Origin: Octopus vulgaris
Taxonomy: Eukaryota
Reading direction: 5' to 3'
Assembly (NCBI GenBank): GCA_951406725.2
Contig: OX597827.1
Span: forward strand, 15,004,001 to 15,068,000
Length of the DNA stretch: 64,000 nt
Part shown: piece after piece, positions 7,516-49,345 of the stretch
Position numbering within the stretch: the stretch's first letter is position 1
Layout of the letters: every line of letters starts with the position of its first letter
Notes under the pieces: generated by a model
Databases searched by the model: none
Told to the model about the DNA's origin: nothing
Seen by the model: only the letters and a program-made list of their open reading frames with translations
Position numbers and translations under genes: made by a program

Positions 7516-8151
7516 GGGAAAGAAGATGAGGAAGAAAAGGCCTTTAATCTCTTCTGCAAACTGCAATATACGAACATACATAAATATACCAATACCAAAA
7601 GATATTAAATCAAATGCTAAAAAAAAAAATGAAAGAGGCTAAGCAAATCATTTTGACCACATTTAAAGAAAACTTCCGATATACTACCAGCCATTAGTAC
7701 CGTTTTTTTTTTTTTTTTTTTTTTTGCTTTTTATTTTCTTTATTTTTATTTTCTGTTATTTTTGTTTCTGAAGGTATGGTGGTGGTGGTGGTGGTGGAGA
7801 TATTGAAAAAAAAATTTCAAAAAAAAATAAATAAAAATTCACTGCCCTCCACCTTCTTCTCTTCATCCTCCTCCTCCTCCTCTCCTTCTTCACATCCTCC
7901 TCCTCCTTCTCATCCTCCTCCTCCTCCTCTTGCAATGTATTCTAATTCATTAGTATCAGAGAAGGATAACTATAACTACAACTACTCCAACCAGGGATAA
8001 AACTGTTGCTTTGATGCAACCAATACCACTTACAGAGAGAGAAATGCTTTCTCTTGTTGGGTTTTTAAAGCAGCTTGGGTTGATGAAGAATATAATGATA
8101 TAACGTAATATATACACGTACATAGGTATAGATATACTTAGATAGATATAG

Positions 8152-8191
<40 letters not shown>

Positions 8192-8195
8192 TGAT

Positions 8196-8245
<50 letters not shown>

Positions 8246-8296
8246 ATATTTATACATGTACCTATAGATAGATATGCAGAAACACATTCACACATG

Positions 8297-8351
<55 letters not shown>

Positions 8352-8495
8352 TAGATACAGATATACTTAGATATATGATACATAGATCGATAGATAGATG
8401 TAGGTATAGATAAATATACGCATATATATATATTCATACATACACCTTATAGTTAGATACGCACAAACACACATTCACACATTTTAAGACATATA

Positions 8496-8538
<43 letters not shown>

Positions 8539-8967
8539 AATAATTTAGAATGAAATGAAAATGAAATAATTAAATGAAATGGGGGTTGGAGGGGGAGAGG
8601 AGGGCATAAGTTAAAGAGAAGCAACCTTAGAAAATGTCACTATAAGTAATGAGTGCAAATTCACTGATAGACAAAACCTCTTTTGAAAAGGACAATAACA
8701 AAATTCTGTACAGTGTTCACTTCAGTAATATATTGATTTTTAGCTGTTCATAGGTGATTCTGGCTACTAACATTTTCAATGAATATCTTGGTGCTGTTAA
8801 TGGTTGCTGTAGTTATGCAGTGAATGTAATAGGAGGCTATGTCAATACCGTAATGGAAATTCTCTATCTGCTACATCGTATGTGAGTGTGTGCATGTGTG
8901 TGTGTGTGTGAGTATATATATATATGTGTGTGTATATAAATAGATAGATAGATTGATAGAGAGAGAA

Positions 8968-8998
<31 letters not shown>

Positions 8999-8999
8999 C

Positions 9000-9042
<43 letters not shown>

Positions 9043-9082
9043 TATATATTCAGTATTTTAGGTGTGTATATATATATACATC

Positions 9083-9117
<35 letters not shown>

Positions 9118-9321
9118 TTATGTGCGCGTGCGTTTGTCTGTGTGTCTATATTTATATAATTATATACGCACATATGTATCAACATATACATACATTCATA
9201 TATTTGATATATGTATACATACATATAGTGCCTCCATTAAATGCATATACAAACATATACATATATGTGTATATACATAAATGCACACAGATATATATAT
9301 GTATGTATGTATATATTTATG

Positions 9322-9358
<37 letters not shown>

Positions 9359-9619
9359 GCATATATATTAACAAAGTTACAAACATACTATGCATTCATA
9401 TCCTTTAATATAAATATGCATATACACGCACATGTAAATTCACAGATATATGTATATATGTATGTATATATATATATATATGTATATGAATGCATGTGTA
9501 TGTGTTTGGTGTGCTGAACACACATACACCACACATGCATATACATGCACACAGACACACACATATAGAAATATACACATAGATATATATATATATATAG
9601 ATTTATATGTATGTATGTA

Positions 9620-9662
<43 letters not shown>

Positions 9663-10164
9663 ACATAGGTATATATATCATATGTATGTTTTATGCATTC
9701 ATATTTATGTACATAAAGATGTGCATCCATGCGTGCTTGCATGTATACACACGCACATCTACATATACACATATTCTACACGCATATTTATATTTACACA
9801 TATAGAAATATATTTATTGTATACGTCTGTGCATTTGAGCATTTAATTTCTATGCACGTTCATGTAGACATTCATATGCATGTGTGTGTGTGCGCGTGTG
9901 TGTAAAGATGTGCACTCACACACTCACACACATAGACAGACACACACACACAAGTGTGTACATGCATACACACACATGCATATACATACATGCGCATATG
10001 CATGCATGAAGACACACATCTACTAAATTTTAGCATGGTTTTTTTCTAGAGGTCTTGTTGAATAACATCAGGACATGTTATAGTATAGATTTTCTTACTC
10101 CTTATACCCATAAATATACATACATAAAATATATATATACATATATATATATACATATATATAC

Positions 10165-17852: not shown

Positions 17853-18930
17853 GGTATTTGAGGACATACCTATTTTGGGTCATTGCTGCATTTTTTTGCT
17901 ATCCCCTGTATAATCATTGCTTCAGAAAATAATAATGGCAGACCCTTAGCTAACTCAAGAGATGAAGAGGCATGCTGTTATTGTTGTTATAAAGGCTGAA
18001 CATAGCGATTTAGAAATATCTCAAGTTTTAAAAGTTGCAAGATCCTTCGTCTACAAAGTTTGTAAGAAGCTAGAGACTGAAGATGGAAACATATCACCAG
18101 TATCAAAGCATAAAATGCATTCTAAACACTCTGAAATCATCAGAACACCTGAATTTATGCAGCAAGTTCAGCAGGCCATTGATTACAATCACAGAAAGTT
18201 CATGAGATCAATTGCAAAAGTTCTCCATGTATCAGACGGAACAGTCAGAAATATTGTCCTTGAAGTCATCAGATATAAGTTTTATATGATGAGGAAAGGT
18301 CAATTTGTCAGAAAAAACAAAATAAAATCACTACATCAGTTCTAAAAGGCTCTTAAACAAACTGAAATATCCAACAGAAGATTTGATTTGGTTTTTCTCA
18401 AATGAGAAAAACTTCGACCAAGATCAAAAAGTTAACAGAAGAAATGATAGATGGTTATGTGCAGACCCTTCAGAAGTTGCAAGTGTTATGCATACAAAAT
18501 TTCCTGCAACTGTCATGGTTTTAGGGGTTGTCAGCAACGAAGGGCATGTGATGCCTTTTTACTTCTTTCCACAAGGCCTTAGAGTTAACTCTGCCGCCTA
18601 CTTTGAGGTCCTGGAAATAATTGTTAAGCCCTGGATAGACAGTGTATGCAATGGAAGGCCATATGCGTTTCAGTAAGACTCTGCACTATCACACATGGCT
18701 CTAGTAACACAGGAATGGATGGCTGAAAATTTTCATGATCCCATAACCCCTAACATTTGACCTCCTAATTCTCCAGGTCTCAATCCATTAGACTATTACA
18801 TGTGGAGCGTTGTTGAGAGAGAGGTCAATGAGCATGCTCATAACACCAAAGATTCTTTGAAAGCTGCCATAGTCAGAGTAATGCCCAAAATGAACCAGAT
18901 CATCTGATTCGAGCATGTAGAGGATTTAGA
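17850..18930 (+). mobile_element. Second DD37D transposon, near-complete transposase pseudogene, 3' truncated
   Basis: TA|CAGGGT start. ORFs 17962-18345 (HTH region) and 18383-18676 (WFFSNEKNF...VMVLGVVSNEG), continuing Q*DSALSH...PPNSPGLNPLDYYMW with D-x37-D spacing. Confidence 0.9.
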
Positions 18931-28716: not shown

Positions 28717-29610
28717 CAAGGTATGATCAATAAGTATCCGGACTGTTGCCATAGTAACAAAGCTAAAACACGTAGAGTGAAGCTACTAGGCAAAAATTGG
28801 TCCTGAACTCTGCTGTACATGTGCACTAGGTTTTATCATTCTTGCTCACTTTCGCTGATTACTGCAGAGCTTGGAAGGAAGGTGTGTAGCGTGTGATTGG
28901 TGCATTGACCATGAGAGGGAAAGTTGTCATGGCAATACCTGCTCAGAGGCCTATACAAAGTTGCAGAAAGTGTATAGAGAGGAGTATATGAGCTGCACAC
29001 AAGTGTCTGACTGGTTCAGATGTTTCCAAGATGGCCAAAAAATGTTGATAGGGACAAACGTTCTGGGAGACTCGCAACCAGCAGAACTGAGAAAAACATC
29101 ACATATGCTCATGCAGCTGTGAGGGGAAATTGCCAAATCACCATCCATGTGTTATCAGGGGGTGTGTAGATTAGTCACAGTTCAGTTCAGTTCATTATCA
29201 CTGAAGGTTTAGGTATGAGATACATGTCTACCAAGTTCATGCCAAAACTGCTATCAGCTGACCAGAATGACACTAGGGTTTCAGTTGCACAAGATCTCCT
29301 TGATTGTGCCGAGAATGATGAAAACTTTTTGAAAACTTTGCATGGGCCTCTTATCAGGTATTGCCAAGCTTTTGGCAAAATTTGATGCAGATTCTCTGCT
29401 CAACTTTCTCTGTCATGGTCAATACAATGATCATATGCTACACACCTTCCTTCCAAGCACTGCTGCAAACAGTAAAAGTGAACAAGAATGTTAAAACTTA
29501 GAGCACATGCATGGCAGACTTCAAGGTCAATCTGTGCCAAGCAGCTTTACTCTGTGTGCTTTAGCTTCGTTACTATGACAACAGTCCGGATACTTATTGA
29601 TCAGATCATG
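28717..29610 (+). mobile_element. Non-autonomous mariner element with ~200-bp terminal inverted repeats and TA target duplication
   Basis: TA|CAAGGTATGATCAATAAGTATCCGGACTGTTG ... CAACAGTCCGGATACTTATTGATCAGATCATG|TA. Interior encodes a mariner N-terminal DNA-binding region (EAYTKLQKVY...VSDWFRCFQDG...GMRYMSTKFMPKLL). Catalytic domain missing. Confidence 0.9.
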
Positions 29611-29779
29611 TATATGTATGGGTTTGGAAGCAAACTTCTTAATTATGGAGGCATGCCTGCAAATGTGCATGTGTGACACTGCATGTGTGTATGTGTGTGT
29701 GTTTGTGCATGTGTACACACACACATATATACATATACATACATATATACACACAGAAACACATACATATATATGTATA

Positions 29780-30190
29780 TATAGAGCTGTATGTATTTCA
29801 GTTCTGTCGTTTGTTTTAGCCACCACGTTAAAAATCTCAACAATAAATTCTTTCCTACCAACATACATATCACCCCAAACGAAATTGTTCTCCATTAAAT
29901 CTGCACTTTATACTACTTATACTCCCTCTTACATCAGACACACACCCTTAATGCATTTTAGAGAATAATTTACTCAGAGAAATCAGTTATGTTAAGGTTA
30001 ACGTATTTAATACAGTGATCATTAAAAAGTAAATTAGAAATAATTATATGAGGTGATAATCGAGATAATCTTACTCATAGACTAATATGGTGCTAGTGAT
30101 TGCAGTAAGTACAGAAAGCAACACCAGACATGTGTCATTCTTATCAAACCTCCTCAGAAATGCACAGAGACTGCAGTCTATAATATTATA
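29780..30190 (-). mobile_element. Second copy of the 24520-25000 repeat
   Basis: Local homology as above. The minus strand keeps CTGAGGA (30157-30151) and ACATGTC. Confidence 0.6.
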
Positions 30191-30197
30191 TAATTTT

Positions 30198-30430
30198 AAG
30201 GCAGTGAGCTGGCAAAAATGTTAGCACGCCAGGCGAAATGCATAGCCATATTTTGTCTGTCGTTACGTTCTGAGTTCAAATTCTGCCAAGGTCAGCTTTG
30301 CCTTTCATCCTTTCGGGGTCAATAAATTAAGTACCAGTTACGCACTGGGGTCAATGTAATCGACTTAATCCCTTTGTCTGTCCTTGTTTGTCCCCTCTCT
30401 GTTTAGCCCCTTGTGGGTAGTAAAGAAATA
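30198..30430 (+). mobile_element. SINE family B, full-length
   Basis: ggcagtgagctggca head, ctttgcctttcatcctttcggggtc core, tagccccttgtgggtagtaaagaaat tail. Confidence 0.9.
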
Positions 30431-30791
30431 TATATAATGGTTGGTATACAAGTTTACATTACCTCAGAAACAAAGAGACTAAATTACTCCGGGATAATTG
30501 GTTAGGGCAGCGGACTCGCGGTCGTAGGATTGCAGTTTCAATTCCCAGACCGGGCGTTGTGAGTGTTTATTGAGCAAAAACACCTTGAAGCTCCACAAGG
30601 CTCCGGCAGGGGTCGTGGTGATCCCTGCTGTACTCTTTCACCACTCTTTCTCTCACTCTTTCTTCTATTGGCCTGCTCACTTGGCCAGCGGGGTGGTGTC
30701 ATTCGAAGGCTAAAACAATGCGAAGTGCATTGTGACCAGCGATGTGTAACAATATCTGATGGTCTGGTCGGTCACGTGATCACGTGATATA

Positions 30792-30830
<39 letters not shown>

Positions 30831-30849
30831 TGCGGGGTCTTGAATATAT

Positions 30850-30858
30850 TCATATATA

Positions 30859-30889
<31 letters not shown>

Positions 30890-31331
30890 TTTCTTGGTTT
30901 GACCACCATCCGTGTAGCATCTCTCGTATTTCTTCCTATGACTTTTATCTATGTTCCTGCCATAAGGCTTCACTTCCACACTTGCCAGCTTAATTTAATT
31001 CATCCCTAATCGAAAGACACTTGTTGTTTGTATTTGTAATTGTGTACCATTTCTCCGGTTTTTTTTCCTTTTTGTCCTTGTTTTCATGTACATTCGCTTA
31101 CTTTCTTTCAAAGAATCCAGTGCTCTTAGCTTAGATTTCCTTGATGCCGGCCAGATTAGAGCAGTCTTGAGATTAACCAGCCAAAACTGCAAAGACGATC
31201 TACTTCTCGATTGATAATTGAAAGCTCTGGATGACTCGTCCTTGTTTTTTCCTGTCCTTTTTTGTATCACTTACTGTCTGAATGTTTTCTTGTTGCCTGT
31301 TATGTTCTTGTTCCATTTTGTGTTTTGGTTT

Positions 31332-31332
<1 letters not shown>
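30850..31332 (+). mobile_element. Unclassified repeat, homologous in inverted orientation to 33820-34225
   Basis: Shared gtccttgtttt..tacatt, aa.gaatc.a.tgc.ctt.gcttag and ggccagatt.gagca.tct..agatt blocks. Both copies sit between TA microsatellites. Confidence 0.65.
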
Positions 31333-31365
<33 letters not shown>

Positions 31366-31384
31366 TAAATGTATCTATATCTAA

Positions 31385-31425
<41 letters not shown>

Positions 31426-31580
31426 TTCCACCTAAATGTGGCTGACCCATAGGGGACGATGCTACTGTTGTTTATAACCCCAGGAAGACATTTCCTCCAG
31501 TTGGCTAACGACACTCTGTCTGTGTCCAGTAAGTATTTGCAAAGGGAAATCATCATCCCCATCTCTAGCCTTACGTGATA

Positions 31581-31625
31581 CACATGGACCCGGGTTTCTG
31601 AATAATAAGTCGTCACCAGCGTGTG
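31581..31625 (-). ncRNA. Degenerate copy of the hammerhead at 31940
   Basis: Minus strand CACACG-CTGGTGA-CGACTTATTATTCA-GAAA-CCCGGG-TC-CATGTG. Core A>G change and disrupted stem II. Confidence 0.65.
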
Positions 31626-31939
31626 ACAATCACCAGCTAGGGATGAGAACTGATTCCTAGCCCAAAATATTATATGCTTTTTCCAGTAACAAACTGTTGC
31701 TGATCTTGGAAAAAGAAAAACAAGCAATAATAAATCTCCAATGAAATGTAAACAGTAGCAGCACAACATCGTGAAGTATATTTGCCACCTAAATGCGGCT
31801 GACCCATAGGGGACAAGGCTGCTGTTTTTTATAGTCCCATACTGATCTCCTTTTTCAAGATCAGCGACAGTTTGTCACTGGCAAAAAGCATATAGTATTT
31901 TGCATTTGGAATCAGTTCTCATCCCTAGCTAGTGATTGT

Positions 31940-31984
31940 CACATGCTGATGATGGGTTATTACCCAGAAACCCGGGTCCATGTG
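31940..31984 (+). ncRNA. Minimal type-I hammerhead ribozyme with intact core, predicted cleavage after C31978 (GUC)
   Basis: Stem I CACATG/CATGTG, core CTGATGA, stem II TGGGT-TATT-ACCCA, GAAA, palindromic ACCCGGGT forming a minimal stem III, then GTC. Confidence 0.85.
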
Positions 31985-33819
31985 TATCATGTAAGGCTAG
32001 AGATGGAAACAGAACGATATACATTCATATGCATGGCAGAAATGTTAGAACGCTGGGTGAAATGCTTAGCAGTATTTCGTCTGTCTATACATTCTTGTTT
32101 ATCCTCCCACCACTACCATCGTTTGACAACTGACGTTAGTGTGTTTACGTCCCCATAACTTTGTAGTTAGACAAAAGAGGCCAATAGAATAAGTACTAGG
32201 CTTACAAAGAATAAGTCCTGGGACCAGTTTGTTCAACTAAAGATGATGCTCCAGCATGGCCACAGCCAAATGAGTGAAACAGTCGTTTGACTGCAGCCAT
32301 GCTGGAGCACCACCTTGAAGGGTTTTAGCTGAACAAATTGACCCTAGGATTTATTTTTCAAAGGCTAGTACCTATTGTATTTGCCTCTTTTGACAAACCG
32401 CTAAGTTACAGGCTGTAAACATACCACCACCAGTTGTGGGGGTGGGGGGGGGGGGCAAAGACAGACATATATATATATATATGTATATATGATGATATAT
32501 ACATACGATGGGTTTCTTTCAATTTCCATCTACCAAATCCACTCCCAAGGCTTTGGTCATTCCGAGGCTAGAGTAGAGGACACTTGCCCAAGGTGCCATG
32601 CAGTGAGACTGAACCTGGAACCACGTGGTTGAGAAGCAAGCTTCTTACCACACAGACATATATATATATATAGATGTATATATATATGTATGTATGTACA
32701 CATACACACATACATGCATATATTTTCAGATATATGTGTGTATATGCATGTATATATATTTATATATATACATGTGTTTATGAATGCATACCAGCTTATA
32801 TATACATATGTCATATATATATATCTATGTATGTATATGAATGTATATATGTATATTGAGCGTCTTTGAATTTCTGTATACCAAACCCACTCACAAGGCT
32901 TTGGTCAGCCTGGGCTATAGCAGAAGACGCTTGCCTAAGGTGTGACACAGAGCAGGACTGAACCTAAGACCATGTGGTTGAGAAGCAAACTTCTTACTAC
33001 ACAGCCATGTCTGTAACTATAGCATTAGGTATATTATCAAGTATATTATTTTAAGGAAAATACATAATTAAAGTAATTTAGTCAGAGTATCTAACAAGAT
33101 AATTAAGCTGTAATAAAAATTAAGCTGTGATAATAATTCAACTGTGATAATAATTAAGCTGTAATGAGTAATTGGCCATGTGATTGCAACACTGACCTTT
33201 GTGTATGTACTCCAATAAGGGCTGCCAGAAAAGCAAAAGGGCTGTTTCTATGGGGTCCTCCTTTGAGCTACAACAATAAGTTATCTCATTATTACAGCTG
33301 GGCATATATGAGACAATCCCATGAAGGCTGTTCTAACATAAAGGGGTGCTGTACATATGTCATAAGAATTGGGGTTCTGGGCTCTTGAAGTCCTTTGATG
33401 CAAAGGACCCGAGCAATTTGTAATACTAATGTCAGAAAACTGGTCAGCTTCTGATCACTTACAGATCAGGGTACTGTACAAAACAGATAGACTTCACATA
33501 CATCAGGAAATAGTGGAAGCACATGGCCTAGTGGTTGGAGCAGCGGACTTGCGGTCAATAATTCTGCCTCCAACTCAGTTGCATGCCTGTGTTTCACTTA
33601 TCTTTTTGCATGCTTTACGACAATAAACGTCACCAACTGCCTACCCTGAGTAGTAACTGATGGCATGTGCCTGATATATACATACATACTGTGTGTTTGT
33701 GTGTGTGTGTGTGGATGCATGTCTTCGTGTTTGCCCCCACAGCACTTGACAATCAGCACTAGTTTGTTTACATCCCTATGACTTAGTTGTTCAACACACA
33801 CACACATATATATATATAT

Positions 33820-34225
33820 CTAAAAAAATACAAACTGGGACAAGAACGCAAAACATTTAGAAGACGATACAAAAAACACGGACGGGACATTTGAAGCCTT
33901 CAATCTTCAGTCAAGAACCAGATCATCCTCGGAATTTCAGCTGATAAATCTTGAGATTGCTCCAATCTGGCCAGTTTCTAGGAAAAACTAAGCCAAGCGC
34001 ATTAGATTCCTTGGAAAAAAGCTTCAAATGTATACAAAACAAGGACGGAAAAACAGACGATGTTACACAAATATGAATACAAAAATGATACGTAAAAACA
34101 ATAATAATAACAATAACAGGACATCACAAACAGGCGTCTTTCAACTTAGATGAATTAAACTCAGCTGGCGTGTTAGAAATGTGCCTTGGGGCAGAGAAAA
34201 AAATGATGTAACCACGACCGCTGGC
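33820..34225 (-). mobile_element. Unclassified repeat, inverted homologue of 30850-31332
   Basis: See 30850-31332. Confidence 0.65.
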
Positions 34226-34411
34226 ATATATATATATATATATATGTATGTATATATGCTTGTGTAGACTAAGTGGGATTTGTTAGTTCTTTGAATGTTG
34301 CCACGTAGAAGTGTGCAATTGTTTTTGTAGACCTACATAGTTTTTGTAGATGTGTGTTGTCGTTTTCAAGCTGATCATTCATATGGTAGCAGAAGTTAGT
34401 GTGAACTTTCA

Positions 34412-34459
<48 letters not shown>

Positions 34460-34794
34460 GTATATATATATATATATGTATATATATATAATAATAATAT
34501 TAGGGAGTAAATCCAAACTTACAAGGAAAAATTAGATTTAGGATTAAATCAAATTTCACAGTATAAATATAAATATAAATTAGAAATAAAACCACTATTA
34601 GGCAAATCAAACAGTGAGAATAACATAAACCAAACATAAAAATAAATATAATTAATATAATATACAAAATATATAAAATATAAAATTTAAAATTGAAATT
34701 ATTTAAATTTAAAATTTTTATTTACATTTATAAATTTTTATATTTTTTTATATATTTTTTAAATTTTTAAATTTTACTAAACCATAATTTTAGG

Positions 34795-35172
34795 TAGTTA
34801 AATTTATTTAATTTATTAATATATTTATCTAAAATGAGTTTACTCAATTTACCAAGGTCTGATTTACATTAATCTAACTTTAGGGTCTGAATAAAAATTA
34901 TCTTTATGGTTTTTCAAAGTAATTCTAGGGTTCATAGGTACATAAGGTTCAGCTTTATTATCCAACTTATAGTTCATCATGACTAATTTAGAGGCCTTAT
35001 TTATAGCATAAAGTGTACTATCTGGAACGATTTTATATTTTTTAATTATCTCTTTCTCTAAAAGGTAATCATATAATTTAACATCCAGTTTATATAGATT
35101 CCTAGTTTTATCTGATTGTACAATAATACCATCCATATTTCTCATTTCTTTAATTCTAATAGCTAAATTTCT

Positions 35173-35175
<3 letters not shown>
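34795..35175 (-). pseudogene. Penelope-like element reverse transcriptase fragment
   Basis: SDKTRNLYKLD...YDYLLEKEIIKKYK...RITLKNHKDNFYSDPKVRL(fs)CKSDLGKLSKLILDK matches the xDKTxNxY...TLKDHKxNF..xPxxRLINPxKSxxGxxSK pattern I recognise from PLE RT N-terminal regions. Followed by an AT-rich tail to ~34500. Confidence 0.75.
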
Positions 35176-35209
<34 letters not shown>

Positions 35210-35603
35210 ACATATATGCTGGCTTTGCCCATGCTCACATGGCCTTCTTTTCAGTTTTTGTCTACCGAATCCATTTGCAAAGCTTGGGGCTATAGTAGAA
35301 GATACTTGCCCAAGGTGCCATACAGTGAAACCAAAGCCATGTGGTTGGGAAGCAAACTTCTTAACCACACAGCCACCTAGGTTGAAAAAATAAAGTTAGC
35401 AGAAGGCACAATCATGGCTGTATTGTAAGAAGTAAAATTCTTCAAGGTCGTGCCCCAGCATGGCCAGCAGTGTAAGGATTGATAATACTAAAAGATAAAA
35501 GTTGAATATTGGGGTTGAGCTATTCAACTTTACCTGCAGCCACTTAAATTTAAAACCTTGTTCTAATGTTGGAAATCATAAATTATGATATATTAGTTGA
35601 GAG

Positions 35604-48320: not shown

Positions 48321-48569
48321 GAAACAATGGATAGGTGTCATTTCATTACACCTGTTTCTAATGAATTTTTTAATTGATTAATGAGCATGTAACATCATTA
48401 TAAAAAATCATTTTCTTCAGATGAGTACATGAACCACAATACTAGGAACATTTTAAAACATTTAAAATCCACAATGATGTGTGCATTATTTTGTGATTCC
48501 AAGAACTTTGCTGGTCGTAAATACATTCATACTTATATATATGCATGTGTGTGTGTGTGTATTACTCTC

Positions 48570-49345
48570 TCTCTCTCCTGCAATGCCAACATAGATACTG
48601 AAACCATCAACAGAATCTCCAAGGCAAGCAGCACGTTTGGGAGACTGCGAAAGAAAGTCTGGGAGCGGAGAGGAATCAGCCTCAACACCAAGCTGAAAGT
48701 CTACCGGGCAGTCGTGCTTACCACCCTACTATACGGCTGCGAGACGTGGACTGCTTACCGAAGGCATGAGCGCCAGATAAACCACTTCCATCTCAGGTGT
48801 CTTCGGAACCTCCTTCACATCCGCTGGCAGGACAAAGTCCCAGACACGGAAGTTCTGAAGCAGGCAGATCTCCCTAGCACCATCACAATCATGCGCAAGG
48901 CCCAGCTGAGATGGGCGGGCCACGTCTCCCGCATGTCTGACACTCGCATCCCAAAACAGCTCTTCTACGGTGAACTTAGCCAGGGCAGGCGCAAAGTCGG
49001 AGGGCAGAGGAAGCGCTACAAGGATAGTCTCAAGGTCTCTCTCAAAGACTTCTCCATCGGAACAGAGACCTGGGAGACACTTACTGCCGACCACTCATCC
49101 TGGCGCAGTGCAATCACCATAGGAGCAGGGACAGCCGAGGAGGGACGGATTCGGTCAGCAGAGCAGAAACGCCAGATGCGTAAAGCCAGAGCCGCCTGCA
49201 CCAGTAGCACGGCCCCTACCCACTTCTGCCCTACCTGTGGGAGGGGCTTCCTTGCCCGGATTGGCCTCACCAGCCACCTCTGGTCTCATGGTGGCAGTTC
49301 CATCAGATGATGTCAGTTGGTCATCTTCGAACCGAAGGACGAACA
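48570..49345 (+). mobile_element. Young 5'-truncated RTE-clade LINE with uninterrupted ORF C-terminus and terminal C2H2-type motif
   Basis: RISKASSTFGRL...LLYGCETWT...QLRWAGHVSRM..RIPKQLFYGEL...CPTCGRGF..RIGLTSHLWSH, no stops over ~245 codons. Possible TSD TATTACTCT (48560, 49363). Confidence 0.95.

Follow-up and report, generated by a model that had tools for sequence, protein, structure and literature searches.

A decayed insertion of a dispersed, hammerhead-bearing non-coding family in the Octopus vulgaris genome, likely mobilised in trans by Penelope-like enzymes

A 64,000-nucleotide stretch of Octopus vulgaris DNA (the window, whose positions are used throughout) contains a motif resembling a type I hammerhead ribozyme, together with a partial direct repeat and an inverted copy, which raises the question of what kind of element carries the motif and how that element came to lie there. 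As set out below, we consider it likely that this part of the window is a decayed insertion (~10% diverged) of a dispersed non-coding family, which has a type I hammerhead predicted to cut as a dimer and is likely mobilised in trans by a Penelope-like RT and GIY-YIG endonuclease.

Anatomy of the locus and its hammerhead motif

The locus is an inverted pair, in which a 419-bp minus-strand arm ending at (TA)n is accompanied by a 164-bp plus-strand arm. Its features are as follows.

31332..31420, no strand: (TA)n microsatellite, likely the insertion target, recognised from sequence; it adjoins the 3' end of the minus-strand arm.
31421..31839, minus strand: main arm, ~1.2 periods of the 357-bp unit, 5'-truncated, with the short (tail-less) family 3' end.
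31425..31482, minus strand: direct repeat of 31782-31839 (partial tandem, pseudo-LTR-like), spacing 357, 86% identity over 58 nt.
31581..31625, minus strand: decayed hammerhead with core A6 changed to G (CTGGTGA, read 31625-31581), stem II broken, a mismatch in stem I and the palindrome intact.
31723..31767 (bounds approximate), minus strand: internal copy of the ~45-nt tail, that is, the stretch between the two preferred family 3' ends.
31846..32009, plus strand: inverted, 5'-truncated partner arm of 164 bp, joined 5'-to-5' to the main arm.
31920..32006, plus strand: predicted extended stem I around the ribozyme, its outer helices with internal loops, from the fold of 31915-32006.
31940..31984, plus strand: type I hammerhead with intact core and palindrome ACCCGGGT; predicted cut 31978/31979.

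The ~357-bp unit with a partial direct repeat and an inverted copy, as described in the first-pass annotation, was recovered in this way, the inverted arms (31559-31716 and 31848-32006) being complementary at 88% over 159 bp. Family copies end at unit position ~72 or ~117; the plus arm has lost its 3' part from ~31 nt past the cut site, and the main arm differs from the column-majority letter of its subfamily at 25 of 243 positions.

Other repeats surround the locus. Abundant, highly transcribed ones adjoin the element at 32034-32281, with RNA-seq depth in the thousands, and one of these recurs at 30210-30271; four tandem copies at 17-nt spacing occupy 33099-33182; and a minus-strand frame at 34867-35250 resembles, by eye, the N-terminal part of the Hydra-clade Penelope-like element (PLE) protein of locus L118, described below. 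We take a 305-aa open frame at 48393-49307 (+) to be like the C-terminal part of a LINE (RTE-like) ORF2, and the stretches at 17950-18904 (+) and 28859-29382 (+) to be broken remnants of Tc1/mariner-like transposases.

In the plus-strand motif, stem I (CACATG/CATGTG) spans 31940-45 and 31979-84 and encloses CTGATGA at 31946-52, stem II at 31953-66, GAAA at 31967-70, the palindrome ACCCGGGT at 31970-77 and GTC at 31976-78. The CUGANGA / GAAA / UH core, three helices and an open end in stem I are all present, and a scan of the 64-kb window for type I hammerheads returned this motif as its sole match. The parts first assigned to the motif (a 6-bp stem I, CUGAUGA, GAAA, the palindrome and GUC) stand, with the exception of a 5-bp stem II, which is instead a 4-bp, G-C-closed helix with an additional nucleotide at either flank, T.A at this locus and C.A in the family. 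The preferred reading of stem II has G-C, G-Y, G-C and U-A pairs and a loop of 4 nt, with an additional C and an additional A at its flanks. Nor is the hammerhead 'minimal', since the palindrome measures 8 nt, helix II has 4 bp, and helix I, of 6 bp, continues into a long extension. The unpaired U that follows the 6-bp stem I and a loop II ending in UA presumably resemble the tertiary contact of canonical hammerheads.

When folded singly, the 45-mer of the plus motif was no better than its shuffles (z -1.08), and the imposed monomer hammerhead fold was disfavoured (-8.0 vs -13.1 for the competing fold). When two copies were co-folded, the double-hammerhead topology was the MFE structure, at -36.7. 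In a plus-strand transcript running over both arms, the arms are predicted to pair with one another, with a pair probability of 0.0 for the ribozyme stems and the motif buried in a hairpin. A model-based search did not recognise the motif: an Rfam scan of 29000-35000 at E<=10 gave 90 matches, none of them to a hammerhead family, the others being microsatellite noise below gathering scores, and the variant layout may explain the missing match. The reality of the motif rests on the family to which it belongs. Read against that family, 31940-31984 is real as a sequence motif, for which cleavage is predicted.

The dispersed family and its stem III palindromes

Genome-wide searches were made in the 2.8-Gb assembly, and the loci analysed were top BLAST matches or exact-pattern matches, a choice that favours long, well-kept copies. 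A DNA search with the unit gave 4453 candidates, and among the best 40 of 4453 scored the top non-self identities were 75-86%. The exact core pattern matched 148 times, against 0 for a reversed-pattern control, and a looser pattern from which the commonest stem III was excluded matched 834 times, against 2 for its control; among the 100 of 834 listed, the matches were subfamilies of the 357-bp unit and two sister families, which have periods of ~350 and ~400 bp and the same core layout. Because copies differ by a median of 7-13% from the column-majority letters of their own group, the 357-bp family is, as judged by sequence divergence, an old one. Families differ by up to ~49% outside the core (112 of 227 columns) and share an unchanged GUC/UC site, the core being partly fixed by the classing rule. 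Same-strand dimers with both 14-nt cores exact numbered five, by an exact pattern that undercounts decayed dimers, and the sister families provided one dimer; no tandem array longer than a dimer was seen among the loci analysed, and the window locus itself does not hold two same-strand ribozymes.

Members of the two sister families were seen at L211:1050-1760 and at L208, L210 and L212-L219, as mini-elements with the C..A core layout. The first has stem II GAG/CTC, a period of ~350 and a visibly homologous 3' end; the second has GCC/GGC and a period of ~400, and is older.

The family also clarified stem II. Among unselected copies, the extra bases are C.A in 23/33 and T.A in 10/33, and for this reason the U-A at this locus most likely arose by CpG decay from the C.A arrangement of the family, and is not the closing pair that had been taken as the family state. 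The extra base between 9 and 10.1 is C or T in all 33 of these copies, and the G10.1-C11.1 pair is G-C in 80 of 91 aligned rows. The idea that the extra A is itself CpG decay of a C-G pair was considered and rejected, since A occupies this position in 33/33 unselected copies and in three families that differ in stem II.

Our structure alignment comprised 91 copies, taken from 97 extracted segments, with many rows chosen by core pattern. In these copies the proposed structure pairs 84.6% of cells, compared with 27-44% when partners are slid, and double-sided changes occur in 18 of 29 pairs, figures to be read knowing that related sequences can exceed a shuffle control without structure and that CpG decay of both partners accounts for some double changes. 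The outer helices of the extended stem I (helices 1-2) show double-sided changes between subfamilies in the same alignment. Because relatedness and CpG decay inflate pair counts, the stem III palindromes provide the clearer evidence. Among 24 copies fetched with a ribozyme-free query, 14 have a perfect stem III palindrome (ACCCGGGT in 8, ACTGCAGT in 4 and ACTCGAGT in 2), one sister family has ACTAGT and ACATGT, and with ACTCGGGT, also common in stem III, self-pairing is still possible through G.U. Letters thus change while stem III stays self-complementary, which is what a double hammerhead requires; at the level of sequence, this is strong evidence for past selection for a dimeric ribozyme. 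The first-pass proposal of a non-autonomous, Penelope-type or retrozyme-type hammerhead family, whose stem III is a palindrome that lends itself to cleavage as a dimer, was in this respect supported by stem covariation and by palindrome switching among subfamilies.

Two other comparisons were set aside. Non-CpG changes in the core (12/297, vs 106/1345 elsewhere) give a weak signal of purifying selection on single copies, confounded by ascertainment and subfamily structure, and subfamily differences in core and non-core columns (0/17 vs 29-112/227), being partly fixed by the classing rule, were not leaned on, palindrome switches being preferred.

A wider reading, which we offer tentatively and as less likely than not, is that the genome holds a radiation of ~350-400-nt circular-RNA PLE parasites, in which the stem III palindrome, a self-recognition code, has switched at least four times. 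Under this reading, the palindromes would be ACCCGGGU, ACUCGAGU, ACUGCAGU, ACUAGU and ACAUGU, with the G.U-wobble form ACUCGGGU as a likely intermediate.

Insertion footprints and the search for a Penelope-like partner

Mapping of 143 loci gave, after removal of 19 duplicates, 187 segments in 119 loci. Their 3' ends fall mostly into two classes ~45 nt apart (67 short and 80 tailed, making up 147 of 187, with 40 other), and their 5' ends are spread over the whole 357-bp period. Inverted pairs joined 5'-to-5' numbered 54 in the 119 loci, with the tail on one arm only in 24 of the 30 pairs in which both 3' ends are intact (p 0.0006), and (TA)3+ was present at 78 of the 147 intact family 3' ends, compared with a background of 11.8%. 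The family shares with PLEs 5' truncation, partial tandems, an inverted 5'-truncated partner, a one-sided tail and a preference for (TA)n, features described as characteristic of Penelope-like insertions, with microsatellite targets preferred by the Hydra, Neptune and Naiad clades (PMC8557442). Unlike PLEs, it has no RT/EN frame, and its tail is ~45 nt, compared with the 30-40 bp given in the same source.

Copies exceeding one period re-enter the 357-bp unit upstream, not coding sequence or a reading frame, and because longer copies continue into their own unit in this way we regard the family as non-autonomous. This also counts against the view that what is seen are ends of a long autonomous PLE, 5'-truncated and left as solo pseudo-LTRs, which could appeal to the ascription of most min-HHRs to truncated PLEs (PMC4209133) and to the inversion, tail and truncation common to autonomous PLEs (PMC8557442). 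The PLE protein matches found in family loci, moreover, belong to neighbouring insertions, at varying distance and orientation, and we hold this origin to be very unlikely.

Around PLE frames, 94 loci were taken from the top-scoring families of three protein searches (GIY-YIG, one young Hydra-clade family with a 717-aa frame and one old family of this clade), and in none of them was there an autonomous element whose end is homologous to the unit; unit matches in these loci occurred only where a family copy sat beside or inside a PLE. There was no consistently placed PLE frame in the flanks of 12 sister-family loci, and no PLE protein match in the window locus (L001). According to PMC8557442, non-autonomous PLEs generally, though not universally, resemble an autonomous family of their genome at the 3' end. 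The Hydra-clade elements examined in this genome carry hammerheads different from that of the 357-bp unit, with long stems II, an odd-length stem III and a position near the 3' end, whereas the family ribozyme lies ~175 nt upstream.

The search brought several PLEs of the genome to light. A very young Hydra-clade family, at L118:223-2373 (+) and over 100 near-identical places, has a 717-aa frame with RWK, DKT and CxCx5C motifs and no Pfam match, and, in the 3' UTR, a hammerhead variant that has CCGA(A/T)GA for CUGANGA, an additional U ahead of GAAA and a stem III of odd length. At L030:1847-2705, an element of this young Hydra family lies inside a mini-element copy, ~190 bp of which is duplicated nearly identically, inverted, around the element. 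At L019:2024 (minus strand), an old Hydra-clade 3' UTR, lacking the Hydra 3' end, is joined to the mini-element exactly at the predicted cut site; this junction is possibly a template switch, a single case with no general enrichment. An intact Neptune-like element at L111:1430-6672 has a 781-aa RT+GIY-YIG frame, an upstream 359-aa frame, 456-bp direct repeats 99% identical, and a 3' UTR in which GATTGG and TGACGTC recur and the sole hammerhead-like motif is a degenerate one. The Hydra-clade hammerhead of L232 is nearly identical to the Hydra-1_oBim entry in PMC8557442 File S2.

From these footprints a life cycle can be proposed. Where, as in rare master loci, two ribozymes lie on the same strand, the palindromes would pair and both sites would be cut, freeing a unit-length RNA that would probably be ligated into a circle. 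A Penelope-like RT/EN would nick a (TA)n site, begin synthesis ~175 or ~220 nt downstream of the cut site, at either of two fixed positions, copy across the cut site and stop at a variable point; a second, inverted synthesis would yield the 5'-to-5' partner and the one-sided ~45-nt tail. Dimeric cutting and a circularised unit RNA were proposed in PMC4209133, and unit-length RNA release and circularisation were shown for other retrozymes in PMC7229834. A circle and an uncut tandem transcript would, as templates, both yield the insertions seen here. Linear cleaved templates should leave 5' ends enriched at the cut site; such enrichment was looked for and rejected (4/187, expected ~6, p 0.54).

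RNA-seq was sampled as ~6% of each of three raw-read runs, at 80% likeness, the species label of the runs being one that may differ from that of the genome. Depth on the family reached ~130, compared with ~8,000-10,000 on the adjoining repeat, with no strand bias. The RNA ends predicted at 31978/31979 did not pile up in these reads, from a library type poorly suited to show them, and the sole pile-up of ends was at 31997, with 5 molecules. On this reference, reads from circular RNA and from a genomic tandem are indistinguishable.

It could be argued that tandem transcripts are mobilised by PLEs uncut, the ribozyme being inactive or marginal because the extra C.A disturbs its core, and the fold being kept as an RT recognition structure. 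Such an arrangement would fit the seamless run of copies over the cut site, the lack of both 5'-end enrichment and RNA ends there, and the low in vitro activity of PLE hammerheads (PMC4209133). A recognition fold, however, needs no intermolecular palindrome, nor a GUC/UC site unchanged across families up to ~49% different, and in many PLE hammerheads stem II has additional nucleotides at both flanks (PMC8557442 File S2). We therefore regard an uncut, non-cleaving family as unlikely and prefer the dimer-cutting one.

Within such a dimer-cutting family, the anatomy and folding of the window copy suggest that it is a dead end: with one ribozyme per strand, ~10% divergence and arms that would pair together, burying the ribozyme of a cross-arm transcript, it could not itself be the source of the ~357-nt cut-to-cut or circular RNA that was first envisaged. 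Its minus copy had also been thought to be mutated by selection against cleavage of a host pre-mRNA. No host gene was confirmed on the minus strand: 33 candidate exon frames had no Pfam match over the cut-off, and PDB, homologue and representative searches gave nothing credible, one match being a 20-residue repeated one. Selection need not be invoked for the damage to the minus copy, as the core is damaged in 11/27 unselected copies. If, conversely, the plus ribozyme were functional and kept by selection, for example in a host or antisense transcript, with the minus copy inactivated to protect host pre-mRNA, this would account for the plus copy having kept all core letters together with the palindrome, as the minus copy has not. 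However, since the core is kept in 16/27 and the palindrome in 9/27 unselected copies, one intact and one damaged arm are a common outcome; the plus copy shows CpG-type changes of the sort seen in other copies, no second ribozyme accompanies it on its strand, and the fold prediction has it sequestered by the opposite arm. With the host gene unconfirmed, we consider selection on this copy extremely improbable.

Relation to known elements

The kind of element is already known, from hammerheads found in PLEs (2014), from retrozymes of animals (2020) and from the PLE origin proposed for these (2026 preprint, bioRxiv 10.64898/2026.07.22.740005), and the 357-bp family is a further member of it, not a new class of RNA. 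By its sequence features, it would work like a metazoan non-LTR retrozyme, with the structural hallmarks examined being those of a non-autonomous PLE. Metazoan retrozymes, among them the 350-390-bp repeats of Mytilus galloprovincialis, are likewise described as having a 150-450-bp non-coding unit with a type I hammerhead, dispersed monomers beside dimers and a proposed non-autonomous PLE derivation (PMC7229834; bioRxiv 10.64898/2026.07.22.740005). Unlike them, the family consists mostly of ~0.5-1.6-period dispersed copies with PLE-type inversion and tail, few of its same-strand dimers (5) have exact cores, tandem arrays beyond dimers were not seen among the loci analysed and its RNA coverage is low. 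The preprint reports 21 Xenopus cases with a homologous autonomous pLTR, whereas none was found for the 357-bp family among the 94 PLE loci; it also reports that one of nine tested retrozyme dimers cleaved, and its case for regarding animal retrozymes as non-autonomous PLEs is built on vertebrate co-occurrence and pLTR homology.

As described in PMC4209133, min-HHRs have no helix III or loop 3, a helix II of 7-8 bp and a helix I of 4-5 bp. The PLE min-HHRs and small-palindromic-helix-III variants of that paper resemble our motif in being type I, in G10.1-C11.1, in the extra base 9/10.1, and in a palindromic 15.2-16.2 region with proposed dimeric action. Because helix III is an 8-nt palindrome, helices I and II are of canonical size and stem I is extended, the motif is nearer to the canonical or small-helix-III class than to the minimal one. 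Its C.A stem II layout is not new either: PMC8557442 File S2 lists C..A for PLE-X1_cBra ('ctgatgac...agaa'), together with T..T and G..C for Hydra-clade elements. Our literature searches gave no description of the family, from cephalopods or otherwise; the supplements of PMC7229834 and of the preprint may list it.

For the detection of such elements, the family shows that a hammerhead layout matched more than 800 times by an exact pattern in a single genome escapes Rfam scanning. The natural palindrome variants are ready matched and mismatched pairs for testing dimeric cleavage. If the radiation reading is true, the palindrome would permit dimeric cleavage only between like units, and the octopus families, together with their tail and inversion footprints, would form a natural series for obligate double-hammerhead processing in an animal and for direct PLE mobilisation of retrozymes. 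To the case for a PLE origin made in the 2026 preprint from vertebrate co-occurrence and pLTRs, this invertebrate family adds the footprints of the insertion mechanism.
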